Virus record (IMG/VR): IMGVR_UViG_3300023202_000061
Reading direction: 5' to 3' (one strand)
Origin: a virus
Lineage: Duplodnaviria > Heunggongvirae > Uroviricota > Caudoviricetes
DNA length: 64,000 bases
Positions 25,376-41,520 of this stretch are shown here, in pieces; positions within the stretch are counted from its first letter, which is position 1; every line of letters begins with the position of its first letter. Below the pieces are notes generated by a model. The model did no database searches, was not told the DNA's origin, and worked only from the letters and a program-made list of their open reading frames with translations. Both the position numbers and the translations under genes were made by a program.

Positions 25376-25444
25376 CCGGGTTTTCATATGATAGTATTGC
25401 AGTAAGAGCGCTATATCGATACGTTTATGTGAGAACCCACCAAT

Positions 25445-25516: not shown

Positions 25517-25521
25517 CCAAT

Positions 25522-25746: not shown

Positions 25747-25826
25747 CCGGGTGATGTCCTAATGGCAGGACGCCAGTCTTCCAAACTGGAGCGAAAGCAT
25801 AGCGGGTTCGATTCCCGTCACCTGGT
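25747..25826 (+). tRNA. tRNA-Gly(TCC), extended variable region
   Basis: acceptor CCGGGTG/CACCTGG, anticodon stem CCAGT/ACTGG, loop CTTCCAA. Confidence 0.55.
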
Positions 25827-25854
25827 CTATTCAGACATACTCTTATGAGGAAGC

Positions 25855-26034
25855 TATTCTTTGTAGTTGTATTGTTTGGTATTCTGGCTCCAGGACCCTG
25901 CAGCCCTTCTCCTCGCCCTCCTTTCGGAACCGGGATGGGTGGAGGAGGATCTTTTCATCCGTACCATCTTGGTGGATACGGTGGAGAATGTGGAGGCTTC
26001 GGAGGGTTGCCAGATGAATAATGGTCCAGTCGTC
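25855..26034 (+). CDS. small Gly-rich secreted peptide (59 aa, below track cutoff)
   Basis: MRKLFFVVVLFGILAPGPC... signal-like N-terminus then GGGGSFHPYHLGGYGGECGGFGG. Confidence 0.3.
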
Positions 26035-26104
26035 AAGTGGTAAGACGCCTCTTTTACAAGGAGGTTATCGGGGGTTCGATTCCCTCCTGGACTACTACCA
26101 ATAC
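26034..26104 (+). tRNA. tRNA-Val(TAC)
   Basis: acceptor GGTCCAG/CTGGACT, anticodon stem CCTCT/GGAGG, loop TTTACAA. Confidence 0.6.
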
Positions 26105-26106
26105 CA

Positions 26107-26802
26107 ATGCATTTAGTCATGAACTATGATAAGTTACTGAAACTCGCTGGTATTTATGAGCAGGATACTGGTTCTGCAACTACTGGAGCAGAAGCCCTTG
26201 AGACGGCTCAACGTGATCCTTCTAGGGTTGAAGAGATGCAGCGCATCATTCAGTACTCTTTAGGAGTTCATGACTCTCAATTGGCTTACAAGGCTCTTCA
26301 AAAGGGTATTCAGTTTGCCAATACTATCGAGGGTGCAGATAAGGAAGCCCTGTACAAAGCGGTTCTTGAAACAAGAAAGCCTGATTTTGTAACCTCCTTT
26401 GCTTCTCGTGTTTCTGGACTGGATAACTCCAATCCGAATATTTACAGTGTACTTTCTAGAAACCCTCAATACCTTTACCAATTTGCTAAGGGTGTGAAGG
26501 GTGCTGACACTGATAGGATCTACAAAACCCTTCTTAATATCTACAAGAAGGATCCGAACAATCGATACCTTGTTTGGGCCGATCAAGTAAAGAATATTGC
26601 AGATAAGAGATTGCTACAAGAGCAATACCCAGCTTCAAACCCCGCAGAGCTTTTCCCATTCAAACCAAAAGAAGAGCCAGAAGATGCAGCCCAGGAGGGT
26701 CCGGTTCCACAGGATGAAGAGGTTGCTGAAAAGAAAGAAATAACAGCATCTCTTTTTCAAAAACTGTTATCTCTTGGTATTGTAAATAAGTCGAGAGTGT
26801 AA
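26107..26802 (+). CDS. hypothetical protein
   Basis: 231-aa ORF. Confidence 0.5.
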   Translation: MHLVMNYDKLLKLAGIYEQDTGSATTGAEALETAQRDPSRVEEMQRIIQYSLGVHDSQLAYKALQKGIQFANTIEGADKEALYKAVLETRKPDFVTSFASRVSGLDNSNPNIYSVLSRNPQYLYQFAKGVKGADTDRIYKTLLNIYKKDPNNRYLVWADQVKNIADKRLLQEQYPASNPAELFPFKPKEEPEDAAQEGPVPQDEEVAEKKEITASLFQKLLSLGIVNKSRV

Positions 26803-26811
26803 AGTCATTGT

Positions 26812-27447
26812 TTGTCAATACAAATGGATGGCAAAACTAAACTCTTTGTATCTACTTGTTTAGATCTGCTTCTTACCAAAGGAATAGAGGTTAGACTTAT
26901 TCCTTCAGACAGGGTTGTTGGTGATGACGGAGTTAAGTGTGCTGGTTGGTTTGACAACGAGAAGAAAGAACTTGTTATTGCAACTGCCAGGGATGATTGG
27001 ATTGAAACATTCGTCCATGAATACTGCCACTTTGAACAATACCTAGACGGAATGTTCAAGGGGTTTGACGATTCTCGTCTTTGGAATTGGCTCGGCGGAA
27101 AAATTGAGCTAGAACAGGAAGAGATTAATAGGCTGTGCGTTCAATCCAGGGAGCTTGAGGCTGACTGTGAGCGCAGAGCAATGAGGAAGATAAAGCAATA
27201 TGAACTACCAATTGACACCCGTTACTATGCACGGAAAGGCAATGCGTACATCATGGTCTACAATGCGATTAGTAGATACCATTCAGTCCCGCAAAAAGTT
27301 GCACCATACAGAATCGCAGACATCTGTAACCTCTTTTCAGAAGACATTCTTGAGTCTTTTGATAGTACTCCATCTGAGTACTTTGAACTCTTGAAGAAGT
27401 ACTGTTATGAAAAAAATCAGATAAAGTCTTTTCCTGTTGAGACTTGA
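26812..27447 (+). CDS. hypothetical protein
   Basis: 211-aa ORF. Confidence 0.5.
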   Translation: MSIQMDGKTKLFVSTCLDLLLTKGIEVRLIPSDRVVGDDGVKCAGWFDNEKKELVIATARDDWIETFVHEYCHFEQYLDGMFKGFDDSRLWNWLGGKIELEQEEINRLCVQSRELEADCERRAMRKIKQYELPIDTRYYARKGNAYIMVYNAISRYHSVPQKVAPYRIADICNLFSEDILESFDSTPSEYFELLKKYCYEKNQIKSFPVET

Positions 27448-27815
27448 TCTACGAAGTAATCGAAATTGTCGGCCAACTCTTCGTATAGCGGCCAAGCGCC
27501 ATTGAGGCGCTTGTAGCAGCGGTAGTAGCTGGCCCTTCCAATTCCACTGTAGAAGGAAATGTCACAGGGGATTGACTCCGGGAACATGACTCTGGTAAAG
27601 AAGACCCAGTCCCCTATGTCCTGAAAGAGTTGGAAATTGTGTTTCTGCTTTGCATCAAACCAAAGAAGAACAACTGATTTATCAGAGAGATCCTTTTCGC
27701 CTTTCAAGTACTTTCGCAAAGTAGACTTGATGTATGCGGACGTTTCCCAATGTTCGCTCTTAAGGTCTACCCAACGGTCTAAAACTGACTCGAAACTCTC
27801 TGTGCACAATTTCAT
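27417..27815 (-). CDS. hypothetical protein (minus strand)
   Basis: 132-aa ORF in a region with no competing + ORF. Confidence 0.4.
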   Translation of the reverse strand: MKLCTESFESVLDRWVDLKSEHWETSAYIKSTLRKYLKGEKDLSDKSVVLLWFDAKQKHNFQLFQDIGDWVFFTRVMFPESIPCDISFYSGIGRASYYRCYKRLNGAWPLYEELADNFDYFVDQVSTGKDFI

Positions 27816-28084
27816 GTAATAATGCCGCAGAAGTGATATAGGGGATAGGTACCTACATGTAGGTAAGTTTCAATCGGATTTGTTTCCGGTCGAGATACGA
27901 AGGACTCATGACAAGAGTCGAACGTTGAAGAAGCGTTGACAGCAGGAAAGACTGCCACCTCGATAGAGGATAGCTAAATCACATATAGACTAAAGCACAG
28001 GGAGCTGTGCCACTCTAAGCCATGATTTGGCTGTCTTCAATAGTTGACAGTTCTCTCTGTGCTTGGGGTTTAGTATGGAGAAAC

Positions 28085-28828
28085 ATGAATACATTACTTA
28101 ACAAACTCAGATACCTTGCAGTCGTAGTAACGGCGTTTGCTCTATTGGGAGCAACGGAACCAAAGAATGAGCAAGAGGTATCGCACACATCTGTAGAGAA
28201 AGTTTCTGCACATCTAGTTTCTCTTCCACTATGGTGGGAGGATGCAAGACTTGAGAAACCTGAAGATCGCAAAGAGAGGCTTGATATTGTAGCTGATACA
28301 CAGCTAGATGTTGCTTATGAACTCACATGCACCGGAGTGTATGACACTCCTGAGTGTGAACCGCAGTTCCATTCAGATTACAGAAAGCTTGTTGGACTAA
28401 TCATTACAGCAGGTTTTTGGGAGACCCGATACGCTCGACGTATCCAGCTTGGAGATTGCAAGAAGAAGGGCGAGAAGATGCCTCTTGGAGGTGTAGCTTC
28501 TCGAAACGAATGTGATTCTGGTAGGGCTCGCTCAGTTTATCAGGTTCAAAAGAATGGTGCATACCCAGAGGAGCTTTGGGATAACGCATTAGGGCTTGAT
28601 TGGCAGTCTCATAGAGATGCGGCAATGGCAGCTGGTCTTACCTTCTCTCATGCTTGGAAGAAGTGTTACGGAAACCATGGTGACTATGGGGTATGGGGTG
28701 CTTATGCAATTGGTAAGTGCGCTACGGTTGAGAAGGGTGTTGCTCGCGCACGATCTTATCGAAAGAGAATGGTTATACTTTACAGGGTGTTGCCAGAGAT
28801 GAGGCGTCAAAACAGGAATCCTTCCTGA
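28085..28828 (+). CDS. hypothetical exported protein
   Basis: ATG at 28085 inside track ORF 28022..28828; N-terminal hydrophobic segment. Confidence 0.45.
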   Translation: MNTLLNKLRYLAVVVTAFALLGATEPKNEQEVSHTSVEKVSAHLVSLPLWWEDARLEKPEDRKERLDIVADTQLDVAYELTCTGVYDTPECEPQFHSDYRKLVGLIITAGFWETRYARRIQLGDCKKKGEKMPLGGVASRNECDSGRARSVYQVQKNGAYPEELWDNALGLDWQSHRDAAMAAGLTFSHAWKKCYGNHGDYGVWGAYAIGKCATVEKGVARARSYRKRMVILYRVLPEMRRQNRNPS

Positions 28829-28857
28829 TATAAAAGAGGGTGGAAACACCCTCGCAT

Positions 28858-28929
28858 TCCTGGGTAGCTCAATGGCAGAGCTTTCGGCTGTTAACCGGAT
28901 GGTTGTAGGTTCGACCCCTACCCCAGGAG
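28858..28929 (+). tRNA. tRNA-Asn(GTT)
   Basis: acceptor TCCTGGG/CCCAGGA, D-arm GCTCAATGGCAGAGC, loop CTGTTAA. Confidence 0.7.
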
Positions 28930-29027
28930 CTAGATTACCAGGGAGTTGCACGCTGACCTTTTGCGGTAGATCTAAGTCACAGCGGTAGCCCCTCCCATTT
29001 ACGATCAATCAATACTGAGCCATTTCT

Positions 29028-29405
29028 TTGATGGCTCTGGTTGATCAAATATTGAAAGCTGCGTCCGAATTCCAAGATGCAGCTTACAAAGAACGCAGGC
29101 GTATAGACCTGACAACGGTTCTTCCAACATTGAAGGGCTGGGATGCAATCAAAAGCCTCCTAGCTCAATATGGAATGGATGTAGGCGCAGAATTCGCAAA
29201 GAACAAGCACTACATAAAGAAAGGATCTGGCATCCTTACCAAGATGTATCTTCTTGGTAACTATGATGGGTGTAGAATAATACCAGACTCACCACCACCT
29301 CCATCTTCTCATGTCGAGATTAACCCTGCGATTTATTACAGTGAATCTGCAAAGTACGATAGAGAAGAAGATGAAAGGGAAAACAACCAATACAACGACA
29401 TATGA
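29028..29405 (+). CDS. hypothetical protein
   Basis: 125-aa ORF. Confidence 0.45.
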   Translation: MMALVDQILKAASEFQDAAYKERRRIDLTTVLPTLKGWDAIKSLLAQYGMDVGAEFAKNKHYIKKGSGILTKMYLLGNYDGCRIIPDSPPPPSSHVEINPAIYYSESAKYDREEDERENNQYNDI

Positions 29406-29688
29406 TTGTCCTCTCTGTGGTCGAGAAGTCCCAAAGGTCAGTGACCATCACTTAGTTCCTAAGTCAAGAGGTGGAAGAGAAACACTTCCAATTTGCTTGG
29501 ACTGCCACAAATCAGTACATGCATTCTTCACTAACAAAGAACTAGAGACCACATACAATACGGTCGAGTCCCTCTTGGCGGACGAGAGTTTTGGTAAGCA
29601 CATAAAGTGGCTTTCGAAACAAGATTCCAACAGGCGGTATAAAACCAAGAGACGCAACGACAAGAAGCGTCGAGGAAGAAGTGGTTAA
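29371..29688 (+). CDS. small HNH endonuclease
   Basis: CPLCGREVPKVSDHHLVPKSRGGRETLPICLDCHKSVH. Confidence 0.7.
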   Translation: MKGKTTNTTTYDCPLCGREVPKVSDHHLVPKSRGGRETLPICLDCHKSVHAFFTNKELETTYNTVESLLADESFGKHIKWLSKQDSNRRYKTKRRNDKKRRGRSG

Positions 29689-29925
29689 GTGTCGAATGTT
29701 GTTTACATACAAGATTATCTAAGGAATAAAGACATGATAACAGATACACAAGCTCACGCTGAGTGGGAAAGAGTAGGACTCCGCACACTGCTGCAGAAAC
29801 TCTGCAACTCTCTTTACGAGACAGCGCATGGATTTGTAGTTTCTTTCTTGCCCGACTCAGAAATTGAGGCAGAGAAAGAGTTAGTCAGAGTTTTCGGCGC
29901 TGACTGGCGTACCAGAAAAGGCTGA
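29689..29925 (+). CDS. hypothetical protein
   Basis: 78-aa ORF. Confidence 0.4.
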   Translation: MSNVVYIQDYLRNKDMITDTQAHAEWERVGLRTLLQKLCNSLYETAHGFVVSFLPDSEIEAEKELVRVFGADWRTRKG

Positions 29926-29957
29926 TTCCAAGACCTCTGTAAAGTTAGAGGTCACAT

Positions 29958-30029
29958 GCTCCTTTAGCTCAATGGATAGAGCAACCGGCTTCTACCCGGT
30001 CGATGAGGGTTCGAGTCCTTCAAGGAGTG
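29958..30029 (+). tRNA. tRNA-Arg(TCT)
   Basis: acceptor GCTCCTT/AAGGAGT, anticodon stem ACCGG/CCGGT, loop CTTCTAC, encoded CCA. Confidence 0.65.
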
Positions 30030-30032
30030 CCA

Positions 30033-30257
30033 ATGGAAAAGTATGAATACAGTGTGATTGATGTAGTGAATAGAATTCACTGTACAGTCCGAGGAACCTG
30101 GCAAGATTACTCTGATCTTGAGTACATGAAGAAAGCATCTGAATGGCTCTCTTGGAGGGTTAGAGAAGGCTGGGATGACTCAGATGATACACAGTACGCA
30201 TCATTGCTTAGGTGTATGGCTCTCATCACTTTAGATGAAGCAAAAAAAAATGGTTAG
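30033..30257 (+). CDS. hypothetical protein (start moved downstream of the tRNA)
   Basis: ATG after tRNA-Arg; the track ORF 30003.. overlaps the tRNA. Confidence 0.4.
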   Translation: MEKYEYSVIDVVNRIHCTVRGTWQDYSDLEYMKKASEWLSWRVREGWDDSDDTQYASLLRCMALITLDEAKKNG

Positions 30258-30311
30258 AGATATATACTCCTAAGGAACAATCAATACAACAGTATAATAT
30301 AATGATATACT

Positions 30312-30384
30312 GGGCCTATAGCACAACGGTTAGTGCAAGCCGCTCATAACGGATAGGTTGGGGGTTCGAATCCCTCTAGGCCCA
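30312..30384 (+). tRNA. tRNA-Met(CAT)
   Basis: acceptor GGGCCTA/TAGGCCC, loop CTCATAA, T-arm GGGGGTTCGAATCCCTC. Confidence 0.6.
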
Positions 30385-30397
30385 CTAAGCTAACTAT

Positions 30398-30479
30398 GGT
30401 GAATTAACACGGCTGGGCCGTGAGTCCTCTTTCTTCGGAGACTGGTCAAGTTAGCGAGTTCGATTCTCGTAATTCACCC
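30398..30479 (+). ncRNA. tRNA-like gene with 8-bp acceptor and 6-bp D-stem (Sec-like fold), anticodon uncertain
   Basis: acceptor GGTGAATT/AATTCACC, D hairpin CACGGC-TGG-GCCGTG, anticodon region GTCCTC-TTTCTTC-GGAGAC, T-arm GCGAGTTCGATTCTCGT. Confidence 0.35.
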
Positions 30480-30482
30480 TAA

Positions 30483-30601
30483 GTAACGCGCTTGAGAGAT
30501 CGTTCATCTTTTATTTGCAACATAAAACCAGCCTGTTCGATTCAGGCAATACTGCTCATGGTGGTCTAGGAGAGCAACTCGGTCTTTCTTCTTTTCGTTA
30601 C
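30483..30601 (+). repeat. A/B cassette 7 (A 30483-30507, B 30581-30601) enclosing a tRNA 3' portion
   Basis: interior has anticodon-like hairpin TTTTAT-TTGCAAC-ATAAAA (GCA), T-arm GCCTGTTCGATTCAGGC, acceptor-3' AATACTG, then D-arm-like GCTCATGGTGGTCTAGGAGAGC. Confidence 0.45.
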
Positions 30602-30606
30602 TTTAT

Positions 30607-30679
30607 GTCCCCATCTTACTAACGGTTAGGTGGTCTGATTCTCAGTCAGAAGGTCTCGGTTCGAATCCGGGTGGGGATG
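30607..30679 (+). tRNA. tRNA-Glu(CTC)
   Basis: acceptor GTCCCCA/TGGGGAT, anticodon stem TCTGA/TCAGA, loop TTCTCAG, encoded CCA. Confidence 0.6.
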
Positions 30680-30681
30680 CC

Positions 30682-30984
30682 ATGAAGGTACCTGGTGAAT
30701 ACTTAGTAATTCTTGGTGATGAGTTTTCAAAACTAAAAATACCAAAAACCCCAGGTGAATTCTGGGAGTGCCTGAATGAAGAGTTTTTGCACAAAAAGGT
30801 TGATCTTAATAAACTTAAGCACTGGGTTCGTCATAGACTAGAATTATTTTTACAAGTAGGTTCAATAGATAAAATACCAGATCTCGATGTACACCAAAAT
30901 CAGAGTGATGCTTGCGAAGTATTTATTCTTGCAGATGGAAAAGATTTAGAGATTTGGTTAGTAGAAAATTTCAAGGCCATATGA
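30682..30984 (+). CDS. hypothetical protein
   Basis: 100-aa ORF. Confidence 0.45.
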   Translation: MKVPGEYLVILGDEFSKLKIPKTPGEFWECLNEEFLHKKVDLNKLKHWVRHRLELFLQVGSIDKIPDLDVHQNQSDACEVFILADGKDLEIWLVENFKAI

Positions 30985-31077
30985 AATATTTATGGTGCTC
31001 ACCGCAATGAGATTATCTCTTTAGCTTATACAACATTAACTCTAACACTAGGGATTGCGGGTGTTGTATAAGTGTCT

Positions 31078-31148
31078 GTCGAGGATCCAAATGGCCAGGG
31101 GGCTGTCTGCAAAACAGTTATTAGCGGGTTCGATTCCCGCCCTCGACT
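31078..31148 (+). tRNA. tRNA-Cys(GCA)
   Basis: acceptor GTCGAGG/CCTCGAC, anticodon stem GCTGT/ACAGT, loop CTGCAAA. Confidence 0.6.
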
Positions 31149-31152
31149 CTAA

Positions 31153-31319
31153 GTAACGCGCTTTGAGATCATTCATCGCCTGTTAAGCCGGATATGGAGG
31201 TTCGATTCCTTCTTCTCGCGCTAAAAGCTAGTTAGTGTACGCACTAAAAGCTAATAAGTGTACGCGAGAATCGTCTAATGGTAGGACGCCGTAAAATGAG
31301 GTCTCGCATCTTTCGTTAC
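31153..31319 (+). repeat. A/B cassette 8 (A 31153-31177, B 31300-31319) enclosing permuted tRNA-like halves
   Basis: 3' portion ...GGAGGTTCGATTCCTTC TTCTCGC G (31196-31220); 5' portion GCGAGAA TC GTCTAATGGTAGGACG (31264-31288); acceptor strands perfectly complementary. Confidence 0.55.
31220..31264 (+). repeat. tandem direct repeat, 2 x about 23 nt (GCTAAAAGCTAGTTAGTGTACG / CACTAAAAGCTAATAAGTGTACG)
   Basis: forms the linker between the permuted halves of cassette 8. Confidence 0.6.
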
Positions 31320-31323
31320 TTTT

Positions 31324-31403
31324 GCTCATGTGGTGAAACAGGAAAACACGACAAGTTCAAACCTTGTTGCTTCGGCTTGGGGGTTCGAGTCCCTCCATGA
31401 GCA
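31324..31403 (+). tRNA. tRNA-Leu(CAA), type II
   Basis: acceptor GCTCATG/CATGAGC, anticodon stem ACAAG/CTTGT, loop TTCAAAC, variable hairpin GCTTCGGC. Confidence 0.65.
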
Positions 31404-31424
31404 CTCTTCAAAAGTAGAAAATAA

Positions 31425-31757
31425 ATGAGCACCAAAACACCCTCTGAAAAGTTTCTGGAAGAATACAAAGCTCTGTGTGAAAAACATAGTTACCACATCT
31501 GTCAAACATACCCAGTCATTTATGGTAACGATCCGGATGAAGAAGAGTACTACAGCACATTCTCCGTACTTCCCTTTGAAACCAAGTCAGGTAAAATCAT
31601 AGGTATCAATCCGATAACTCATGAACAACATGCTGAGCTTGTTAAGAAGGTTTCTCAAGATGAAGAAGAATCATTGGAAGCAATGAAAGCATCTTATGAA
31701 AGATGTGGTGGCAAGTTTGATGAAGAGGGTAATCCAATAGGATTTGAAGATGAGTGA
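31425..31757 (+). CDS. hypothetical acidic protein
   Basis: 110-aa ORF. Confidence 0.5.
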   Translation: MSTKTPSEKFLEEYKALCEKHSYHICQTYPVIYGNDPDEEEYYSTFSVLPFETKSGKIIGINPITHEQHAELVKKVSQDEEESLEAMKASYERCGGKFDEEGNPIGFEDE

Positions 31758-31980
31758 AAGAGTAGACATACCACAATTTGAACTCATCGGAACTAAGTGT
31801 AAGCATGAAGATTGTGATGGGGTTCTGACTCCTTACTGGCACCTAAAGAAAGCCGAGACAGGACATCAATGCTCAGTTTGTAATGATAAGTTCGATGTTA
31901 TAAAAAGGGATAAGGAATCTCATAAGAAGGAACTCCGACTACTCTTTCCTCAAATGATAGACAAAATAGATATAAAGTAA
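31744..31980 (+). CDS. hypothetical Zn-ribbon protein
   Basis: CKHEDCDG...CSVCND. Confidence 0.45.
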   Translation: MKMSERVDIPQFELIGTKCKHEDCDGVLTPYWHLKKAETGHQCSVCNDKFDVIKRDKESHKKELRLLFPQMIDKIDIK

Positions 31981-32062
31981 CCGTGCGTGGTGGAACTGGC
32001 ATACACACTTGGTTTAAGCCCAAGCGCCTTCGGGATTGGGGGTTCGACTCCCTCCGCACGGA
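31981..32062 (+). tRNA. tRNA-Leu(TAA), type II
   Basis: acceptor CCGTGCG/CGCACGG, anticodon stem CTTGG/CCAAG, loop TTTAAGC, long variable arm. Confidence 0.65.
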
Positions 32063-32067
32063 CTACT

Positions 32068-32262
32068 ATGAGTTTAGAAATAAGTAGATATGGATGGTAC
32101 TTGCGGCTAGGACGTTTTTCTTTACATTGGTTAGCGCCCTGGGCTTGGTACGAATTCCATCTAAAAAGTTATATTTGGTCTTATCTACCAGATGATGAAC
32201 ATTTCTGGGGAAGAATATTAGGATTAGAATACTGTTGGTACAAAGGAAATTTTGATAGTTAA
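32068..32262 (+). CDS. hypothetical Trp/Tyr-rich small protein (start moved downstream of the tRNA)
   Basis: the track ORF 31987.. overlaps tRNA-Leu; ATG at 32068. Confidence 0.3.
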   Translation: MSLEISRYGWYLRLGRFSLHWLAPWAWYEFHLKSYIWSYLPDDEHFWGRILGLEYCWYKGNFDS

Positions 32263-32519
32263 TGGGATACAAAATTTGGAGAAAAGACAAGCATGGTTGG
32301 GACTTAGCCTTTGACACTGTGTACGATACGAAAGATAAGGCTGATGAATACATAGCCTCTTTGAACGCTCAGTATGCTGAGATGGTAAAGTACGGTGAGC
32401 TATCTTTTTATCCCTACCGAGAAGACATAAAGCTTGACAAAAACGGGGAAATCATCGATACTGAACTGCATAGAAGGATACGAAAACCCCGCCGTCCACA
32501 CAGACGCAAAAAGCGATAA
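32262..32519 (+). CDS. hypothetical protein
   Basis: 85-aa ORF. Confidence 0.45.
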   Translation: MGYKIWRKDKHGWDLAFDTVYDTKDKADEYIASLNAQYAEMVKYGELSFYPYREDIKLDKNGEIIDTELHRRIRKPRRPHRRKKR

Positions 32520-32552
32520 AAGGTATTCAGTTGCCAATGAAAGGGCAGACTC

Positions 32553-32783
32553 ATGTTGGATGTAAAAATGATCGCTCAAGATCCAGAGATGGTGAAAGAG
32601 AGATTGAAAACAAGAGTTACCAAAGAGGAAGATAAACAGAAGATTGAAGATGACATAGATGGCATCTGTCTTCTTTACCACGAGATCAAGCTCACCAGGA
32701 AAGCCCTGGATGATGCAAAGCATCTGCAAAAACTGCTACAGCAGGATATGATGGAAATGGCAAAGCCAAAGAACAAGAAGTAA
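32553..32783 (+). CDS. hypothetical protein
   Basis: 76-aa ORF. Confidence 0.4.
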   Translation: MLDVKMIAQDPEMVKERLKTRVTKEEDKQKIEDDIDGICLLYHEIKLTRKALDDAKHLQKLLQQDMMEMAKPKNKK

Positions 32784-32856
32784 AGACTTTGGATCATAAG
32801 TGATCCTTAGATGGGGATCACCACATGAAAGATCTCCATTCAATATTGGAGCTAAA

Positions 32857-34029
32857 ATGACACAAACACACGTAAATATCGGAACCATTGGACACGTTGA
32901 CCACGGAAAGACAACCCTTACCGCTGCGCTAACAAAGGTTCTATCGTCACTGTATGGTGGTAGCTCCATTGATTTTGATCAGATCGATAAGGCTCCTGAA
33001 GAGAAGGAGCGAGGCATTACGATCAATACATCGCATGTTGAGTACAACACTGCCAATCGGCATTATGCTCACATCGATTGTCCTGGTCATGCCGACTACG
33101 TGAAGAACATGATCACTGGAGCATCACAAATGGACGGCGCTATCCTACTAGTTGATGCTTCACAGGGAGCACAGCAGCAGACCCGTGAGCATATCCTTCT
33201 TGCTAAGCAGGTTGGAGTTGAGCAGATGGTAGTCTTCCTTAACAAGATTGATGTTTCTGATGAGGAACTCATCGAGCTTGTAGAGATGGAAGTTACTGAG
33301 ATGCTTGAGTCTCAGGGTTTTGAAGGTACACCAATGGTTAGAGGGAGTGCTCTCAAGGCACTTCAAGCTGATTCTGATGGCCCTGAGTGGCAGTGCATCA
33401 AGGATTTGGCCCAGGCTTTGGACGAACATCTCACAGAGCCTACTCGTGATTATGACTCACCATTCCTCATGCCTATTGAGGATGTTCACTCTATCCCTGG
33501 TAGAGGAACTGTTGTTACCGGACGTGTATCTCGCGGTAAGATAAAGGTAGGAGATAAGATCGAAATCATTGGTTTGAGCAAGGTTGATGACAAGCCTAGA
33601 GAGGTTGTTGTCACTGGAACTCAGGCTTTCCACAAGGACATTCCTGAAGCTGTAGCTGGTCTTAATGTTGGATTGCTCCTTCGTGGTGTAGATAAGGATG
33701 AGGTTGTCCGTGGACAAGTCATCACTGCACCAGGATCCATCAAGCCACACACCAAGGGTAAGGCTGAGATTTATGTTCTCTCTAAGGATGAGGGTGGTCG
33801 TCACACACCATTTTTCAGTGGTTACAAGCCACAGTTCTTCTTTGGTACAACATCTGTAACTGGAGAGGTTTTCCTTGATGGAGAGGGTGCAATGGTTGCT
33901 CCCGGTGGACGTTCGGAGATCAACTTTGGTCTTGATAAGCCAGTTGGTGTCGAGAACGGTATGCGTTTTGCCATTCGTGAGGGTGGTAAGACTGTTGGTG
34001 CTGGAATTGTAACTGATATCTCTGCATAA
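32857..34029 (+). CDS. tuf: translation elongation factor Tu (bacterial type, short N-terminus)
   Basis: [26 protein letters not shown]-motifs; 390 aa; GGAG RBS upstream of ATG at 32857. Confidence 0.9.
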
Positions 34030-34144
34030 TACCAATTGTTAGGAGAGGCTTTCGTCTCTCCTAACAATCCAGCTCTAAAGAGTTCGCTATGATTTGCCGA
34101 TTAAAACACAAACCGACTAAACAGAAACCCAAGTACAACACTTT

Positions 34145-34217
34145 GGGCCAGTCGGTTAATTGTGCAAACCAGCAGGCTTTTACCCTGTGACTGTGAGTTC
34201 GACTCTCACCTGGCCCA
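34145..34217 (+). tRNA. tRNA-Lys(TTT)
   Basis: acceptor GGGCCAG/CTGGCCC, loop CTTTTAC, T-arm GTGAGTTCGACTCTCAC, encoded CCA. Confidence 0.6.
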
Positions 34218-34235
34218 CCACCACGAATGTGGTTT

Positions 34236-34308
34236 GGGCCTATAGCTAAATGGTAAAGCAGCGGACTTTTAATCCGAAGATTTCTCAGTTCAAGTCTGGG
34301 TGGGCCTA
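34236..34308 (+). tRNA. tRNA-Lys(TTT), second copy
   Basis: acceptor GGGCCTA/TGGGCCT, loop CTTTTAA, encoded CCA. Confidence 0.5.
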
Positions 34309-34413
34309 CCAAAGGAGGATATGGGATGTTATGTAGTAAACGTATGCTCTTGGTGCACCAAGGAATTTGAACCCCATACATTCCTTTGATAGTTTCTAGA
34401 CTAAAAAGGAGGG

Positions 34414-35717: not shown

Positions 35718-36037
35718 TGGAAATCGGAGGATACGACATGGTTGTTGAGGGATCCTTTTCGGAGGATCTTCTCATCAACACCATCAAAGAATTTTGGCCC
35801 AAGGCTGTGGTTGATAATGTTCAAGATGAACTTAGCTCCCATAAACACGAAATTTTTGGATACTCTACAAATGATTCAAAGATGGTATGGGATGAGCATG
35901 GGCTAACGGATGAGTTTGCAGATGAAATGATTTACATCATACTTGAAAAAGACCACATCTGTTTAGTTGTAAATTCTCCAGAATCAAAAATAGGTAAGCA
36001 CATTGTTGCTACATTAGGTAAAGAAAATGGCAAATGA
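35714..36037 (+). CDS. hypothetical protein
   Basis: 107-aa ORF. Confidence 0.45.
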   Translation: MMEIGGYDMVVEGSFSEDLLINTIKEFWPKAVVDNVQDELSSHKHEIFGYSTNDSKMVWDEHGLTDEFADEMIYIILEKDHICLVVNSPESKIGKHIVATLGKENGK

Positions 36038-38231
36038 TTATTCAGAAATGAACACGTATCGTCATGATAACGTACACATCACAACAGGTGGAAAGGTTCC
36101 AATCAAGGAGTGGACCGTTGGTGTTGATGTAGAGGATGGTGCTCGTAAGCAGCTTGTTAACACAGCTCAGATGCCATTTATTTTCAGACACATTGCGGCC
36201 ATGCCAGACGTACATTCTGGTAAGGGCTCAACAGTTGGTTCGGTTATCCCAACACACAAGGCTATCGTGCCTGCTTGTGTAGGTGTGGATATTGGATGTG
36301 GAATGATGGCCGTGCAAACAACTATCAAGGGTTCTCAGCTACCAGACAACCTCGCAGATGTTCGTTCTGCTATTGAAGCTGCGGTTCCACATGGTCGTAC
36401 TGCTAACGGTGGTCCAAACGATAGAGGTTCTTGGTCCGATCCACCAAGCACTGTAGAAATCGCTTGGATGGGTCTTGAGCCAAAGTACAAGAAGATTGTA
36501 GAGAAGAATAAGGGTATTGAGTCCAGACATGGCCGAGTTCCTCATTCTCATCTTGGTACTCTTGGAACAGGTAACCACTTTATTGAGATGTGTATTGATG
36601 AATCTGATTCTGTTTGGATCATGCTTCACTCTGGGTCTCGTGGAGTAGGTAACCGTATTGGTTCCTTCTTCATTGATAAGGCTAAGCAAGAGATGGATCG
36701 ATGGTTCATTTCTGGACGTTTGCCAGATATCAATCTAGCATTCCTGCCAGAGGGATCTGATCTCTTCAAGGACTATGTTGAGGCGGTCGGATGGGCTCAG
36801 GACTTTGCTCGTACTAATCGTGAGCAAATGATGAATGCTGTCCTTAAGGCTCTTAAGAAGTGCAAAAAGATTCCTAAGTTTGAGACAACTGAGGTTGCTG
36901 TGAACTGCTTTCGAGGAGATACTAAGTTCATTACATCTACTGGAGTAAAGTCATTAAGTGAAGTTTCAGGATCAACTGTAAAGCTTTTAACAAGCACTGG
37001 TGAGTGGGTATCCGCCCCCATTAAGAGCTTTGGAGATCAAAGCATTGTAAAGCTAACACTAGGCCGTTATGATGTAACAAAAACAATTTATACTACTGCC
37101 GAACATAGATGGTTTGTAGATCCACTTCAAAGGAAGAGGGTTGAAAAACTAACAATGGATCTTGAGCCTGGGGATCGTCTAGCATTTCAACGTGCAAATA
37201 AATCTTTTGATGGTTTTGATCCGCTATTTGAGTATCGAGGTTTTACTTTCGGTGACGGTTCTACTTGTAGCGTAAACACATCTTTAGCTAATTTTTGTGG
37301 GCCAAAAATTCCATTGCTAGATCGATTTAAAAAACTAGGAGTTGGTAATGAGCCACGATCATATGGTGATACAATTCGTGTAACAGGCTTGAGAGGGCAC
37401 TGGAAAAAAACATTTGATGATCTATTTAATGCCTCTCCCAATAAGATTGCAGGCTGGCTAGCTGGGTATTTTGCTGCTGATGGTGATATCGATAAAACAG
37501 GCCGCCCCACTATTACTTCTGCTAGAAAAGAGCACTTAGAAGTTTATAGAGATTTGTGTTGGTTAATTGGAATAGCTACCTATCCCATCAGGGTAACATA
37601 TCGCACAGGATATGGAGAGGAAGAAACCCCTATTTACTTGATGGGTCTAAGTAGAAATGATTTACCAAATGATTTCTTTTTGCGCGAAGATCATCGTGTA
37701 CGTTTGCGAAGCGTTGATGAACGGTTAAATTGGAAAGTTTTATCAGTAGAAACAACAGATTGCATTGATGAAGTGTTCTGTGCTGAGGTTGATGGTACAC
37801 ACTCATTTGTATTGGAAGATGGAATCCTTACTTCGAACTGTCACCACAACTATGTGGAGAAGGAATTCCATTTCGGTAAGTCCGTATGGGTAACTCGTAA
37901 GGGCGCTATTCGTGCTCGCAAGGGTGACCTTGGAATTATCCCAGGATCAATGGGGGCTAAGTCTTTCATCGTTCGTGGACTTGGATGTGAGGATTCTTTC
38001 TGTTCAGCTTCTCACGGAGCAGGGCGTAAGATGAGCCGTACTGAGGCTAAGAAGAGATTTACACTCAAAGATCACCGAGAGGCAACTGAGGGTGTTGAGT
38101 GTAAGAAAGATGCTTCTGTACTCGATGAGACACCACAAGCTTATAAGGACATTGATACCGTCATGGAAGCTCAGAAGGATCTCGTTGAAGTTGTTCATAC
38201 GCTCAAGCAAGTTGTTTGTGTGAAGGGGTAA
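36027..38231 (+). CDS. rtcB: RtcB RNA 3'-phosphate/5'-OH ligase, interrupted by an intein
   Basis: RtcB conserved blocks (MPDVHSGKG, GTGNHF, CHHNY, HGAGR); 734 aa versus about 420 aa expected, excess explained by the intein. Confidence 0.85.
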   Translation: MANDYSEMNTYRHDNVHITTGGKVPIKEWTVGVDVEDGARKQLVNTAQMPFIFRHIAAMPDVHSGKGSTVGSVIPTHKAIVPACVGVDIGCGMMAVQTTIKGSQLPDNLADVRSAIEAAVPHGRTANGGPNDRGSWSDPPSTVEIAWMGLEPKYKKIVEKNKGIESRHGRVPHSHLGTLGTGNHFIEMCIDESDSVWIMLHSGSRGVGNRIGSFFIDKAKQEMDRWFISGRLPDINLAFLPEGSDLFKDYVEAVGWAQDFARTNREQMMNAVLKALKKCKKIPKFETTEVAVNCFRGDTKFITSTGVKSLSEVSGSTVKLLTSTGEWVSAPIKSFGDQSIVKLTLGRYDVTKTIYTTAEHRWFVDPLQRKRVEKLTMDLEPGDRLAFQRANKSFDGFDPLFEYRGFTFGDGSTCSVNTSLANFCGPKIPLLDRFKKLGVGNEPRSYGDTIRVTGLRGHWKKTFDDLFNASPNKIAGWLAGYFAADGDIDKTGRPTITSARKEHLEVYRDLCWLIGIATYPIRVTYRTGYGEEETPIYLMGLSRNDLPNDFFLREDHRVRLRSVDERLNWKVLSVETTDCIDEVFCAEVDGTHSFVLEDGILTSNCHHNYVEKEFHFGKSVWVTRKGAIRARKGDLGIIPGSMGAKSFIVRGLGCEDSFCSASHGAGRKMSRTEAKKRFTLKDHREATEGVECKKDASVLDETPQAYKDIDTVMEAQKDLVEVVHTLKQVVCVKG
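36906..37838 (+). mobile_element. intein (311 aa) with LAGLIDADG homing-endonuclease domain inside rtcB
   Basis: begins CFRGDTKFITSTG, contains LAGYFAADGDI, ends ...ILTSN with +1 Cys of extein motif CHHNY. Confidence 0.75.
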
Positions 38232-38235
38232 TCAG

Positions 38236-38775
38236 TTGTCACAATTAAAGATTGAAGATCACATATCCGTTGTTCCAGACTTTCCTAAGCCTGGTATTGT
38301 CTTTCGAGACATTACCCCTCTTCTGGCGATAGAAGGAGGGCTTAGGAAAGTTTCTGGGGACATCTTCAAAACCTTCGTAGATCTGAATCCAAAAGAGCCT
38401 CTTGATTACATTGCTGGGCTCGATGCCAGAGGATTCATAATAGGTGGAGCAATGTCTGTTGATTTCAACACTCCACTCATCACTGTTCGTAAAGCTGGTA
38501 AACTTCCTCCTCCAGTAATCTCTGTTGAATATGAAAAAGAATACGGCACTGATAAGGTTGAGGTATCTGCCAATCTTAACATTGAGCCTGGCTCTACTGT
38601 TGCTATCGTAGATGATCTTTTAGCCACTGGTGGTACTGCGATTGCTGCGATTCAGCTTTTGAGAAAGCTCAAGCTCAATGTAATGTGTGCTTCATTTGTT
38701 GTCGAGCTAGATATTGGTGGTCGTAACCGAATAGAGGAGCAAGGTGTTGTAGTAACATCATTGTTAAAGTATTGA
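38236..38775 (+). CDS. apt: adenine phosphoribosyltransferase (type I PRTase)
   Basis: PRPP-binding motif VAIVDDLLATGGT. Confidence 0.8.
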   Translation: MSQLKIEDHISVVPDFPKPGIVFRDITPLLAIEGGLRKVSGDIFKTFVDLNPKEPLDYIAGLDARGFIIGGAMSVDFNTPLITVRKAGKLPPPVISVEYEKEYGTDKVEVSANLNIEPGSTVAIVDDLLATGGTAIAAIQLLRKLKLNVMCASFVVELDIGGRNRIEEQGVVVTSLLKY

Positions 38776-39134
38776 TGAAAGGCTCTGGGTTATTGACGGT
38801 ATACGATGAGAAAATCGTTGTAGAGATAGACCCGGACCTTGGTTACTTTTATCGCTCACTGATACCAAAAGCGAAGGGTGTCCATGGAACACGATACCCG
38901 CCACACATAACTGTTGTACGCAAAGAGGCTTTCCCGAAGTTTGTACAGGGCTTTGAGGTATCTTTTGAGTACTCAGTAGATATTCAGCACAATGATGTTT
39001 ACTGGTGGCTACCAGTTCGGTGTCGAGAGCTGAATGAGTTTAGGATTTCTTTAGGTCTACCATGGTGGTCTGAACTTTGCCGTCCACCCGATGGATCAGA
39101 TAATTTTCATATCACAATAGGTAATACCAAATGA
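38772..39134 (+). CDS. 2H-phosphoesterase superfamily protein (LigT / cyclic phosphodiesterase-like)
   Basis: two H-x-T-x motifs (PHITVV and FHITIG) about 80 aa apart. Confidence 0.6.
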   Translation: MMKGSGLLTVYDEKIVVEIDPDLGYFYRSLIPKAKGVHGTRYPPHITVVRKEAFPKFVQGFEVSFEYSVDIQHNDVYWWLPVRCRELNEFRISLGLPWWSELCRPPDGSDNFHITIGNTK

Positions 39135-39352
39135 TAGACTTCACCACTCATATTGGCTGTGATAAGTGTTCTGAAAAACATGACACTCGCCGTTATTATG
39201 ATGACGAGATGAACAGCACATGGCAACATATAAAATCAGATATTGAAAAGTATGAGTACAAAACTGTCAATACAAAAAAGAAGTCATACCTGCTATGTAA
39301 GAAATGTCATAAAGAGTATGAGGATTCAGTAGAAGAAATTCTTTCAAAATGA
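39131..39352 (+). CDS. hypothetical Zn-ribbon protein
   Basis: CDKC...CKKCH. Confidence 0.4.
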   Translation: MIDFTTHIGCDKCSEKHDTRRYYDDEMNSTWQHIKSDIEKYEYKTVNTKKKSYLLCKKCHKEYEDSVEEILSK

Positions 39353-39609
39353 AAGAAAAGGAGCGAGAAATGAGCGTACTATCATGTAACAGAAAAGACT
39401 GCGAGAACGTCATGTGCGACAGGTATAGTGATGCTCATGGTTACATTTGTGATGAATGTTTCGCAGAGCTGCTTCTTGTGTTTCCAGATGTAACTATTGC
39501 TAGTTTTATGGACTCTCCAAAGAGTGGCGAGAAGAAGTTAGATTACACATCTGTTCTTGAGCAGGAATTTAGATCTAGGTGGGATGAAGATGAAGAATCT
39601 ACATCTTGA
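39349..39609 (+). CDS. hypothetical Zn-binding protein
   Basis: 86-aa ORF with CxxC pairs. Confidence 0.4.
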   Translation: MKEKEREMSVLSCNRKDCENVMCDRYSDAHGYICDECFAELLLVFPDVTIASFMDSPKSGEKKLDYTSVLEQEFRSRWDEDEESTS

Positions 39610-40465
39610 TATAGAGACGGGCGATCCAGACGATCTCTGGACGTTAGCTCTCGTAGCTACACATCCCAAACTAAACCTCAAGACTGTCAGTGTTTACCCT
39701 GGTCGTCCAGATCAGATTGGTTTAGTGCGCAAGGTGCTAAGGCTTGTAGGTCGTGAAGATGTAATCATCGGAGCTAACCTTCTCAAGGATGACAAGAAGT
39801 CCGTAGGCCAGTACTACTACAATTGGCTTGGAGACATTCCCGAAGAAGAGCCTGATTGGGATCTTGTAAACCTCAAGAATGAAATTGAGTATGGAACAGA
39901 TCTTATCACTGGCGGGCCACTAAAAAATATCGGTGACCTAGTGGCTTATCAAGCAGGAGAGCAAAACGACAAGAAGCTCTTTAGTAACTGGACCGCTCAG
40001 GGTGGTTTCGTTGGGTGTAACATTATCCCTGACTCTGAAGCTCTGGAGAAATTCAGAAGTAAAGAGTTCATGGCTACTTACAATCTGGGTGGTCACAAAA
40101 AGTCTGCTCTGTATTTGATGAGTGAGGGATCAAATAGATTTGATTCTATTCATATGGTAGGAAAAAATGTATGTCACGGATTTGTCTTCACTGGAGATGA
40201 TGTGGCTTCTTTACCAAAGGGCAAACACGATGGGCTGGATGTGATGATTCAAGGCATGGAGAAATATTGCAAAAAGAAACCTCAGGGAAAAGCTATGCAT
40301 GATATCCTAGCCGCTCTGCTTCATATCAATCCTGATCATGGAAAGTGGATAATGGGTGAAGCTATTCGTGAAAAGGGTAAGTGGGGATTTTGGTGGAAAC
40401 AGTACTCTAAAATCCAGGCCCTTACCTCTGTAGACAAAGAGGCCGTAATACAGGAGCTTTGGTAA
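39584..40465 (+). CDS. nucleoside hydrolase-like protein (IUNH family)
   Basis: N-terminal LDIETGDPDDLWTLAL resembles the DxDxxxDD metal-binding motif of IU-nucleoside hydrolases. Confidence 0.45.
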   Translation: MKMKNLHLDIETGDPDDLWTLALVATHPKLNLKTVSVYPGRPDQIGLVRKVLRLVGREDVIIGANLLKDDKKSVGQYYYNWLGDIPEEEPDWDLVNLKNEIEYGTDLITGGPLKNIGDLVAYQAGEQNDKKLFSNWTAQGGFVGCNIIPDSEALEKFRSKEFMATYNLGGHKKSALYLMSEGSNRFDSIHMVGKNVCHGFVFTGDDVASLPKGKHDGLDVMIQGMEKYCKKKPQGKAMHDILAALLHINPDHGKWIMGEAIREKGKWGFWWKQYSKIQALTSVDKEAVIQELW

Positions 40466-40701
40466 TGTTTTATGGCAGAGAACTTCTAATCATCCATGGA
40501 ATATCACTTGAGTATTGGGCCAAAAAGTATGGCGTAGAGCCTTTTGAAGTCGAATGTGATAATTGTGGTAAGATTAAGAAAGCTAACCTTCCTGCACGCT
40601 CCAAGACCCATGTTGGTCTTCGCTCTGCTCCGTGCCCTTGTGGTGATGATTCCGTTGCTCCTTATGCAATAGTCATGAATGATTCAGACTGGGGAAGGTA
40701 G
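40459..40701 (+). CDS. hypothetical Zn-ribbon protein
   Basis: 80-aa ORF, CDNCG...CPCG. Confidence 0.4.
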   Translation: MVMFYGRELLIIHGISLEYWAKKYGVEPFEVECDNCGKIKKANLPARSKTHVGLRSAPCPCGDDSVAPYAIVMNDSDWGR

Positions 40702-41078
40702 TGTTCAAGATAACCGGAAAGACAACTGATGGAAAGATCGTAGTCAAAGGTGTGTACAAAATGTACGAAACTGATGGTCTTCCTTTAGATGTTATCTTCG
40801 GTTTCCTAAATGAGAACAATGCCATTCCTGATTGGCTTTGGTTTTTCATTGAGGCTACTGAGGCAGGGATGAAACCAGAACGTATCCTCTCTAAGTTGGA
40901 ACATCCCATTGCGGACTCCTATGGACCAGAGATGAGAGATGTTGTTATCAAGAAGCTCAGGTGTTTCTACACCCTTCATGATAAGCGAATGAAGATCAGA
41001 GAAGAAGCATTAGACAAGCTAGCAAAACTAGGACAAGAATTCGATGCAGACGATGGGAAACAAAGTCCTGATAGTTGA
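40701..41078 (+). CDS. hypothetical protein
   Basis: 125-aa ORF. Confidence 0.45.
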   Translation: MFKITGKTTDGKIVVKGVYKMYETDGLPLDVIFGFLNENNAIPDWLWFFIEATEAGMKPERILSKLEHPIADSYGPEMRDVVIKKLRCFYTLHDKRMKIREEALDKLAKLGQEFDADDGKQSPDS

Positions 41079-41520
41079 TGATATGACAGAGAGGCATGAT
41101 GGTTTGTCCAGAGAGTATTCTGGACAAGATATACATCATGCTTACTCTTACAGCGAAGCTGTATCCTATCTTGATAACAATGTTTATGATCTGGTTTGTT
41201 TTGATCATGACCTAAATGACTTTTCTGATGGATCAGAGAAGACAGGTGCATCTGTAGCAAAGTATATGGCCTATGGTGGAATGATTTGTAAGGGTGCGAG
41301 AGTTCATTCTCACAACCCCATTGGAGCCCAAAACATAATATCTATACTTAGATCTGGAGACGTTAGCTCCAATATTTGGTATGAACCATTTGCCATATTT
41401 CCTGGGGCGAATATGGTTGGCCTTAAAGAAAAAGCCTTACAAGAACTTGTAGAAATTACCGAAGAAATGGGCCTTTACGATGATTTGGAAAATCCACTTA
41501 TCAAAAAGGATAAGGAATAA
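41044..41520 (+). CDS. hypothetical protein
   Basis: 158-aa ORF. Confidence 0.45.
   Translation: MQTMGNKVLIVDDMTERHDGLSREYSGQDIHHAYSYSEAVSYLDNNVYDLVCFDHDLNDFSDGSEKTGASVAKYMAYGGMICKGARVHSHNPIGAQNIISILRSGDVSSNIWYEPFAIFPGANMVGLKEKALQELVEITEEMGLYDDLENPLIKKDKE

Follow-up and report, generated by a model that had tools for sequence, protein, structure and literature searches.

Elongation factor Tu (EF-Tu) is commonly regarded as one highly conserved housekeeping protein, and actEF-Tu (Streptomyces EF-Tu3) is the only distinct EF-Tu-like subfamily in the Atkinson 2015 survey, where it was proposed to serve under stress and with EF-Tu inhibitors present (PMC4342817). Here we describe a second accessory lineage that departs from this view, taking as the starting point a 64,000-nucleotide stretch of a virus of the Caudoviricetes (IMG/VR record IMGVR_UViG_3300023202_000061; hereafter the window), which codes for a 390-residue EF-Tu (32857..34029, plus strand; ATG start, TAA stop) embedded in an array of tRNA genes. 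Sequence comparisons indicate that this protein belongs to a separate and widespread accessory family, termed short-N, that is distinct from the housekeeping tuf lineage. That phages can encode an EF-Tu has been reported before (PMC7162821); what appear to be new, relative to the literature and libraries that were searched, are the family with its signature residues, its presence in both phages and bacteria, and its embedding in tRNA arrays along with HNH and RtcB genes.

Like the short-N family, actEF-Tu is a divergent, accessory second EF-Tu that is found away from the ribosomal operons. However, it has been reported from some Actinomycetales only, whereas no actinomycete is present among the matches listed for the short-N family, and no association with tRNA arrays or phages has been described for it; the two are set apart here by description. 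EF-Tu duplicates serving particular tRNA sets are also represented by SelB and the nematode mitochondrial EF-Tu1/EF-Tu2 (cited in PMC4342817). These paralogs possess extra domains or extensions and altered contacts with the tRNA body, in contrast to the short-N proteins, which display canonical T-stem and 5'-phosphate contacts and no added domain. Among huge phages, the accessible part of Al-Shayeb 2020 (PMC7162821) lists EF-G, EF-Tu, EF-Ts, tRNAs, and transfer-messenger RNA (tmRNA), which were proposed to sustain translation efficiency in infection, and contains no EF-Tu lineage analysis, signature residues, tRNA-array link, or bacterial counterparts. Relatives of the window EF-Tu do occur on contigs of 427-499 kb, although the source contig of the window is 138.6 kb long, below the 200-kb threshold for such phages. 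A parallel to the surrounding array is provided by the L-arrays, studied in cyanobacteria, in which up to 43 tRNA genes are densely packed in one orientation; for these, the accessible text of Santamaria-Gomez et al. 2021 (PMC8421152) reports horizontal transfer, linkage to an HNH endonuclease and rtcB, and induction by translational stress. The window resembles these in combining 39 co-oriented plus-strand tRNA genes within 15 kb with HNH and RtcB genes, as do the 37-tRNA arrays of Myxococcota with HNH and a short-N EF-Tu. Unlike the cyanobacterial L-arrays, the window array belongs to a phage and has many small open reading frames (ORFs) scattered through it, and the same accessible text does not name EF-Tu among the array-linked genes.

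Evidence for an accessory EF-Tu family with a shortened N-terminus

The window protein is a bacterial-type EF-Tu by fold, family score, and motifs. It shows the three-domain EF-Tu architecture in Pfam searches (GTP_EFTU, 2e-60; D2, 4.5e-19; D3, 2e-29), scores 583.9 bits against the NCBIfam EF-Tu equivalog TIGR00485 (cut-off 522.4), and retrieves bacterial EF-Tu as its top solved-structure matches (E 1.9e-156). The P-loop (GHVDHGKT), switch I/II, T61, DCPGH, His84, NKxD, and SAL elements are present, with the G1-G5 motifs being 100% conserved in the clade of phage proteins to which it belongs (see below); these searches agree with the preliminary description of this locus, which had recognized a full-length bacterial-type EF-Tu with all G motifs. 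An AlphaFold model computed from a 59-sequence family alignment (predicted local distance difference test score, pLDDT, 85.9) superimposes on the GTP-form/ternary-complex structures of EF-Tu (1EXM, 1EFT, 1TTT, 1OB2) with template-modeling (TM) scores of 0.86-0.87, compared with ~0.55 for the open GDP forms. Residue conservation in the window protein and its clade extends to the aminoacyl-pocket residues His66, Glu215, and Asn273, to K89/N90/R288 at the 5'-phosphate and Q329/T338/E378 at the T-stem, and to the EF-Ts contacts as listed for the analysis. Neither the protein nor its clade has a change in the Lit cleavage region (R58-G59-I60-T61-I62) or at the Doc target T382. In domains, fold, G motifs, His84, the 5'-phosphate and T-stem contacts with tRNA, and the EF-Ts contacts, the protein is like the housekeeping TufA/TufB (TIGR00485). 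The gene is under strong purifying selection over its whole length, the ratio of nonsynonymous to synonymous substitution rates (dN/dS) being ~0.08-0.10 within the phage clade.

The most conspicuous difference is at the N-terminus, where the window protein has four residues before the histidine that is preceded by 11 in canonical EF-Tu, and the (S/A)KxKFxRxKPH segment is not present. The structure-based match pairs residues 2-388 of the query with 9-392 of the chain, so the window protein has ~7 fewer N-terminal residues. A ribosome-binding site, GGAG (32848..32851, plus strand), can be read in the sequence 5 nt 5' of the ATG, and a start at the in-frame GTG at 32800 would instead lengthen the protein by 19 residues bearing no likeness to SKEKFERTKP. 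When the 105 top protein matches were aligned with E. coli TufA, essentially all of them displayed a short N-terminus and a common set of substitutions, at 56-63% identity to E. coli EF-Tu. Scanning one-genome-per-species bacterial genomes with a family-specific DNA pattern (PQF[FY]FGTTxVTG) matched at least 120 stretches; after ORF extraction, the family copies have 3-8 residues before the histidine, whereas canonical copies read MAKxKFERTKPH, with 11. In the family homologs the upstream frame is often open for 6-12 codons only before a stop is encountered, and hence the short start is not a gene-calling artefact. These alignments indicate that the short N-terminus is a lineage trait and not a truncation event in the window gene: the preliminary description had correctly noted the missing SKEKFERTKPH segment but took it for a truncation, when it is a defining trait of a family that is also found in bacterial chromosomes. 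Mansilla and colleagues reportedly found in 1997 that Arg7 of the canonical N-terminus is important for aminoacyl-tRNA binding.

In a neighbor-joining tree with 100 bootstraps, computed with the N-terminus left out of the alignment and with a canonical sample that is modest and in part biased, a 99% bootstrap value separates the family core of 167 unique sequences from canonical EF-Tu. The window protein lies inside this bipartition, within an 11-sequence phage clade with 100% support, and upon addition of metagenome sequences the two values are 98% and 100%, respectively. Identity between the family and canonical proteins averages 57% (maximum 64%), against a mean of 70% (minimum 60%) for canonical proteins across phyla; the window protein itself is only 54-64% identical to canonical EF-Tu. 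Besides the loss of the KFERTKP segment, the family is set apart from housekeeping EF-Tu by positions that hold a near-invariant but contrasting residue in each group. With their frequencies in the family, these are E259Q (96%), V104L (98%), the loss of one residue at G164 (99%), and F304G (81%), and T71S, D109Q, M112Q, M260A, and D266P also belong to this set. The window protein has the full signature, viz., an N-terminus in the range of 3-8 residues before His11, Q259, L104, the deletion at G164, and S96. E259 corresponds to Glu271 of the Thermus protein, which together with Ile231, Val237, and Leu289 forms the pocket for tRNA A76, and the archaeal SelB/EF-Tu-like MM1309 also has a glutamine at this position (PMC4329189). 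In the window protein the other pocket residues (I220/V226/L277) are kept and, as in 96% of the family, E259 is replaced by glutamine; a diverged EF-Tu with such an altered acceptor-end pocket could interest orthogonal-translation engineers. R333G, Y160Q, F218H, and R262H were ruled out as family-specific markers, as these residues vary in canonical EF-Tu too; the canonical set is, moreover, skewed towards G333 because the genome-scan pattern selected FGTT. Y160 and R333, which we take to be sites of kirromycin and pulvomycin (elfamycin) resistance, were accordingly not used as diagnostic.

The family spreads well past the phage-context sequences, with several members on megabase-scale bacterial contigs. 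Among the matches listed, the named carriers include Myxococcota (19 loci), Variovorax (13 loci, 12 of them in cultured strains and one in a metagenome-assembled genome, MAG), Hahella, Pleionea, Acanthopleuribacter pedis, Filomicrobium, Thiodiazotropha, Planctomycetota, and Acidobacteriota. NCBIfam, PHROGs, and PADLOC contain no model specific to the short-N family: PHROGs has no EF-Tu family, with the window protein matching phrog_6880 only, through its G-domain, and no PADLOC defense model matches the window protein or four bacterial family members. Family genes are at present all labeled plain 'elongation factor Tu', and can confound both tuf-based phylogenetic markers and the host-contamination filters of viromics.

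Three sets of sequences lie at or beyond the margins of this family. One protein (P0042) combines the family signature (Q259 and others) with a canonical-type N-terminus, MAKGKFERTKPH, and is an intermediate or a recombinant. A high-GC 'Enhygromyxa-type' subgroup from metagenome contigs with GC of 0.56-0.64 (L170, L174, L178, L183, L185, L189, and L191) comprises 383-residue proteins with the N-terminus MxKQHLNVG, which group weakly with the phage clade (23-43% bootstrap). Its loci too are in tRNA arrays, 6/7 having 6-11 tRNAs within 4 kb and the remaining one (L189) having three within 4 kb and 12 across the whole locus. Finally, loci L021-L034, on IMG/VR contigs of 49-533 kb, define a second short-N EF-Tu lineage of huge phages, which shares 59% identity with canonical EF-Tu and 54% with the family core, although L021/L022 retain a long N-terminus. 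Its position relative to the family is unstable (63% support in one tree, not recovered in a larger one), and it is therefore treated as a separate lineage. In its switch I, AKGGTVRD..K[TV]VTI replaces APEEKARGITI, with the result that the Lit G59-I60 site is gone, and its SAL motif is changed to A/N-A-K; the tRNA genes on its flanks are nearly all for Leu, Ser, Tyr, and Phe.

Association with tRNA arrays, HNH, and RtcB

ARAGORN detects 45 RNA genes in the window, all on the plus strand, i.e., 44 tRNAs covering all 20 amino acids and a tmRNA (60878..61256) with the tag ANDNAFAPAALAA. The EF-Tu gene is embedded in the core of this co-directional array, which contains 39 tRNA genes (19418..34311), the nearest on its 5' side being a tRNA-Leu(taa) (31981-32063) and those just 3' of it being two tRNA-Lys(ttt) genes (34145-34220 and 34236-34311). 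An HNH endonuclease gene (22816..23517; Pfam HNH_3 and HNH) lies within the array, and a gene for an RtcB RNA ligase (36027..38231; Pfam RtcB, 1.5e-121 in two stretches; phrog_1075) is found 2 kb 3' of EF-Tu; a PTH2-type peptidyl-tRNA hydrolase (12835..13464; PF01981, 4.2e-17) is encoded further upstream, and all three are on the plus strand. The tRNA-rich region with PTH2, RtcB, tmRNA, and a suppressor-type tRNA that had been read from the sequence is thereby recovered by ARAGORN and Pfam. Its portrayal as an unusually complete translation toolkit, on the other hand, is not supported: the window ORFs of at least 150 residues include neither EF-Ts nor any aminoacyl-tRNA synthetase, initiation factor, or release factor, and the toolkit is therefore centered on tRNAs, repair, and rescue.

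Across the family, the context is accessory and not that of a ribosomal operon. Unlike housekeeping EF-Tu, whose settings are rpsL-rpsG-fusA-tuf-rpsJ or tRNA-tufB-secE-nusG, the family was not seen in a str-operon or rpsG/rpsJ (S7/S10) context at any of 90 loci, and is instead found in phages and in tRNA arrays; an EF-G homolog is near the gene at 1/90 family loci versus 15/35 canonical loci, and the window has no S7, S10, or EF-G gene. In three bacterial chromosome contexts the family gene stands alone among unrelated genes. The single locus with an EF-G homolog (L126; Polyangiaceae chromosome OZ245328.1) has it 2.1 kb upstream on the same strand, with no S7; the identity of this homolog to the Firmicute EF-G query proteins is 47-48%, and the two genes may represent a pair of accessory elongation factors.

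All 18 phage-context loci (~14 non-redundant) have tRNAs within 4 kb of the EF-Tu gene, with 16 having at least three. An independent metagenome scan with a clade-specific pattern yielded 24 loci, on source contigs of up to 499 kb, and in 20 of these a tRNA gene lies no more than 4 kb away; of the four that lack one, two have <800 bp of flank. Five bacterial copies are situated within arrays of 37, 37, 10, 8, and 6 tRNAs, with an HNH ORF beside all five. RtcB is encoded beside the family EF-Tu in the window, in a 427-kb phage, and at three bacterial loci (L006, L098, L118, and L155 being the four other than the window); in the cultured gammaproteobacterium Pleionea sp. CnH1-48 (L118; 1901-7042, minus strand), rtcB, rtcA, a gap, and then the short-N EF-Tu follow one another on one strand. 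Neighbor clustering in the high-GC bacterial loci was noisy on account of long shadow ORFs, and only HNH, RtcB, and within-genus synteny emerged from it; an 'ABC ATPase' neighbor cluster was discarded as generic.

As to individual loci, a Myxococcota chromosome of 9.4 Mb (L046; OZ245034.1) and a 224-kb MAG contig (L133) both have 37 tRNAs packed within ~7 kb around EF-Tu with an HNH ORF downstream, and the former codes for a Ro60/TROVE+vWA protein 5 kb from the family EF-Tu. The tRNA-Lys(UUU) genes directly downstream of EF-Tu, two in the window, number three in the relative L005 (2843-3065).

Proposed role and alternative explanations

EF-Tu acts stoichiometrically on aminoacyl-tRNA, and therefore a phage adding ~44 tRNA genes plausibly gains from its own carrier capacity. 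The tRNA-Lys(UUU) supplied here in extra copies is a classic target of anticodon nucleases such as PrrC. The genes around EF-Tu, i.e., RtcB with its cyclic-phosphate cluster, the extra tRNA-Lys(UUU), PTH2, and tmRNA, all handle damaged or stalled translation, and EF-Tu itself is cleaved by Lit and type IV Thoeris and co-opted by Avs7 (PMC13581612). With modest confidence, we favor the proposal that the window gene specifies a functional accessory EF-Tu supplying elongation capacity for the array tRNAs while translation is under attack. Under this proposal, the gene would be transcribed together with the co-directional ~44-tRNA array, and its product would work with the host ribosome and host EF-Ts, adding ternary-complex capacity for the array-encoded tRNAs. 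It might further insulate that capacity from attack, such that phage protein synthesis continues during translation damage, and would act alongside the RtcB repair cluster, PTH2, and tmRNA. In some bacterial chromosomes the same module of accessory EF-Tu, tRNA array, HNH, and often RtcB might also constitute a horizontally moving island. A lineage tied to mobile tRNA arrays and RNA repair suggests that the supply of elongation factor is part of the arms race over translation, in which anticodon nucleases and the EF-Tu-cleaving systems Lit and Thoeris IV also take part. As carriers such as Variovorax, Pleionea, Hahella, and Acanthopleuribacter are cultured, and some are genetically tractable, the idea is directly testable.

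Several points weigh against this proposal. Outside phages, the link to arrays is strong in no more than a subset of bacteria, because 58/66 bacterial genome loci have no tRNA neighbor, and it could partly reflect a general clustering of translation genes in huge phages. It is orientation alone that points to co-transcription with the array: a promoter/terminator scan of the window gave counts no higher than shuffle expectation and neither element for the EF-Tu gene. Dependence on host EF-Ts is assumed because the window has no EF-Ts, the delivery of aminoacyl-tRNA and the exchange by EF-Ts are predicted from contact-site residues, and E259Q along with the N-terminal loss could reduce rather than preserve aminoacyl-tRNA binding. 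A canonical tuf in the family-bearing bacteria is likewise suggested by context and the identity gap. Finally, there are no structural genes within the 64-kb window, and the phage assignment therefore relies on PHROG matches, gene organization, and IMG/VR relatives.

A stronger version of insulation, which we regard as a tentative minority view, is that the family is a defense-resistant or orthogonal replacement for host EF-Tu, replacement being one of the two roles put forward in the preliminary description. The loss of the N-terminus and the remodeled acceptor-end pocket would then let it escape EF-Tu-directed proteases (Lit, the type IV Thoeris protease), Doc-type kinases, CdiA/Tse6-type toxins, and sensors such as Avs7, and/or prefer the array tRNAs, and translation would continue after host EF-Tu is destroyed. 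EF-Tu is indeed a documented target or co-factor of several defense and toxin systems (PMC13581612; bioRxiv 10.64898/2026.09.18.752725), and the family changes map to the N-terminus and the acceptor-end pocket of domain 2 (E259Q; PMC4329189). The tRNA-Lys(UUU) copies and the RtcB repair cluster near the gene are typical of counter-measures to translation-directed defense, and the second phage lineage (L021-L034) has swapped the switch-I sequence bearing the Lit site. However, in the window gene and its clade the Lit site (RGITI), which the preliminary description had singled out for checking, and the Doc site T382 are unchanged, and consequently nothing in the sequence points to Lit evasion; no resistance determinant can be read from it. 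The T-stem contact residues are canonical, and so no tRNA preference is predicted, and many bacterial copies have no obvious conflict context. Were such an insulated channel real, a mobile module of tRNA array, EF-Tu, and RtcB could sustain translation with host tRNAs and EF-Tu disabled, and the apparently independent N-terminal shortening and Lit-site loss in L021-L034 would be convergent evidence for it.

The actEF-Tu subfamily (PMC4342817) furnishes a precedent for a further explanation, namely that this is an antibiotic-insensitive spare EF-Tu comparable to Streptomyces EF-Tu3, which arose as a soil-bacterial answer to elfamycins and was later acquired by phages. Consistent with it, the family is an accessory, non-operonic second EF-Tu that is enriched in soil and predatory taxa (Myxococcota, Variovorax) among the matches listed. 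We nevertheless consider it improbable: G333 and non-tyrosine residues at 160 also occur in canonical lineages and hence are not family-specific, and the embedding in tRNA arrays and the purifying selection in phages are left unexplained. The inspection of kirromycin and tRNA-contact positions called for in the preliminary description gave a mixed outcome, with canonical residues at L120, Q124, G316, A375, and E378 and at the tRNA contacts, and departures at Y160Q, R333G, and E259Q; the GE2270A positions are canonical as well.

Less probable still, and in our estimation very unlikely, is the suggestion, also made at the outset, that the protein is a decoy or sponge that soaks up EF-Tu-directed defense proteins and does not work in translation. 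The retained Lit recognition region would leave it recognizable as EF-Tu. Yet a decoy needs neither a dN/dS of ~0.1 over the full length nor invariant GTPase, tRNA-binding, and EF-Ts-contact residues, and because selection acts on the catalytic and tRNA-binding residues a pure decoy role is unlikely. Further, host EF-Tu is among the most abundant proteins, such that very large amounts of a decoy would be required, and the family is also resident in bacterial chromosomes. Phages and defense systems repeatedly co-opt EF-Tu: Qbeta replicase makes use of the host protein, which also binds the major capsid protein of T4. This raises the idea of a non-translational moonlighting role, e.g., in phage replication or capsid assembly, where it would serve as a subunit or chaperone. 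This is hardly credible given that the tRNA-binding residues and those of the ribosome-activated GTPase are fully conserved and that the gene is consistently among tRNA genes, not replication or structural genes.

Provenance of the gene

The larger ORFs of the window match PHROGs strongly. Besides RtcB, these include NAMPT (phrog_448), PhoH/PIN (phrog_2765), NMNAT-Nudix (phrog_395), and an AAA ATPase (phrog_10440); NADAR and an M50 peptidase are also encoded. The best isolate/GenBank relatives of one such ORF are only ~39% identical, led by a 595-kb uncultured phage, and a search for near-identical DNA with positions 30000-38000 of the window gave no match among isolate phages. In a large protein database the exact EF-Tu protein is found on the 138.6-kb Joint Genome Institute (JGI) contig, with the next relatives graded from 71 to 82% identity. 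Three contigs with relatives (27, 91, and 429 kb) show dense co-directional small ORFs lacking Pfam matches, along with RtcB, RNA ligase, or Thg1, and the same clade is present in IMG/VR on viral genomes of 427 and 38 kb. In a tblastn search of isolate phages every full-length match was a canonical host tuf in a mislabeled or contaminated record, at ≤59% identity; PLSDB plasmids contain canonical tuf only (≤61% identical to the window protein), and canonical tuf is also found at the edges of many IMG/VR contigs.

Host tuf does, as seen in these isolate-phage records and contig edges, contaminate 'phage' sequences. As the source of the window gene, however, a piece of host tuf on a chimeric or contaminated contig is excluded by phylogeny, composition, and context. 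The encoded protein is only 54-64% identical to canonical EF-Tu and falls in a clade with 100% bootstrap support, in which all other proteins of known context are from tRNA arrays on contigs of up to 427 kb. Co-directional phage-like sequence extends for 32 kb to one side of the gene and for 30 kb to the other, and its GC content (0.47) and GC content at third codon positions (GC3; 0.41) are consistent with the window. Across relatives the GC3 of the gene ranges from 0.14 to 0.92, following that of each resident genome. Such ameliorated GC3, the phage-context clade, and the dN/dS of ~0.08-0.10 together answer the concern, raised with the preliminary description, that phylogeny might expose a recent chimeric or host fragment.

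Other features of the window

Directly 3' of the EF-Tu stop codon, a 12-bp perfect hairpin without a U-tract (34036..34067, plus strand) can be read in the sequence; it is absent from the output of the terminator scan, and is possibly a processing or stability element. Directly 5' of EF-Tu is a 76-residue ORF (32553..32783, plus strand), which matches PF02403 at 27.2 bits against a gathering score of 28.2; its resemblance to the N-terminal arm of seryl-tRNA synthetase is uncertain, and it could merely be a coiled coil.

RtcB is interrupted by an insert of ~314 residues (~36906-37847) with matches to LAGLIDADG_3 (27.5 bits) and, below the gathering score, Intein_splicing (28.1 bits), and this is probably an intein with a LAGLIDADG homing endonuclease. 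It is followed on the plus strand by a putative RNA-repair/nucleotide-processing cluster (38236..43021), whose Pfam matches comprise a PRTase (38236-38775), an IU-nucleoside-hydrolase-like protein (39557-40465), a protein with the cREC_REC 'cyclic-phosphate processing receiver' domain (41044-41520), an SLT protein (41535-42329), and a metallophosphoesterase (42380-43021). Proximity, and that only, suggests that this cluster may form one functional unit with EF-Tu. An IU_nuc_hydro gene is also found 3' of EF-Tu in the relative L001 (12330-13346), and its occurrence after EF-Tu in both thereby suggests conserved synteny.

The suppressor-type tRNA (50605-50677, plus strand) has the anticodon CTA, is called as tRNA-Pyl by ARAGORN, and is amber-suppressor-like; a similar tRNA(cta) is present in L029. 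TAG recoding tied to this tRNA was considered and set aside, there being no sign of it in the window because TAG terminates 13 of the 65 plus-strand ORFs. ARAGORN further reports two tRNA-like genes (20191-20263 and 22611-22687) that have four-base anticodons (gtta, tagc) and no amino-acid assignment, which could be frameshift-suppressor-like tRNAs, intron-containing genes, or miscalls. Lastly, a set of NAD-salvage/ADP-ribose genes (6558-10187), coding for NMNAT-Nudix (6558-7703), NADAR (7705-8250), and NAMPT (8745-10187), resembles the NAD+-reconstitution counter-defense genes of phages.

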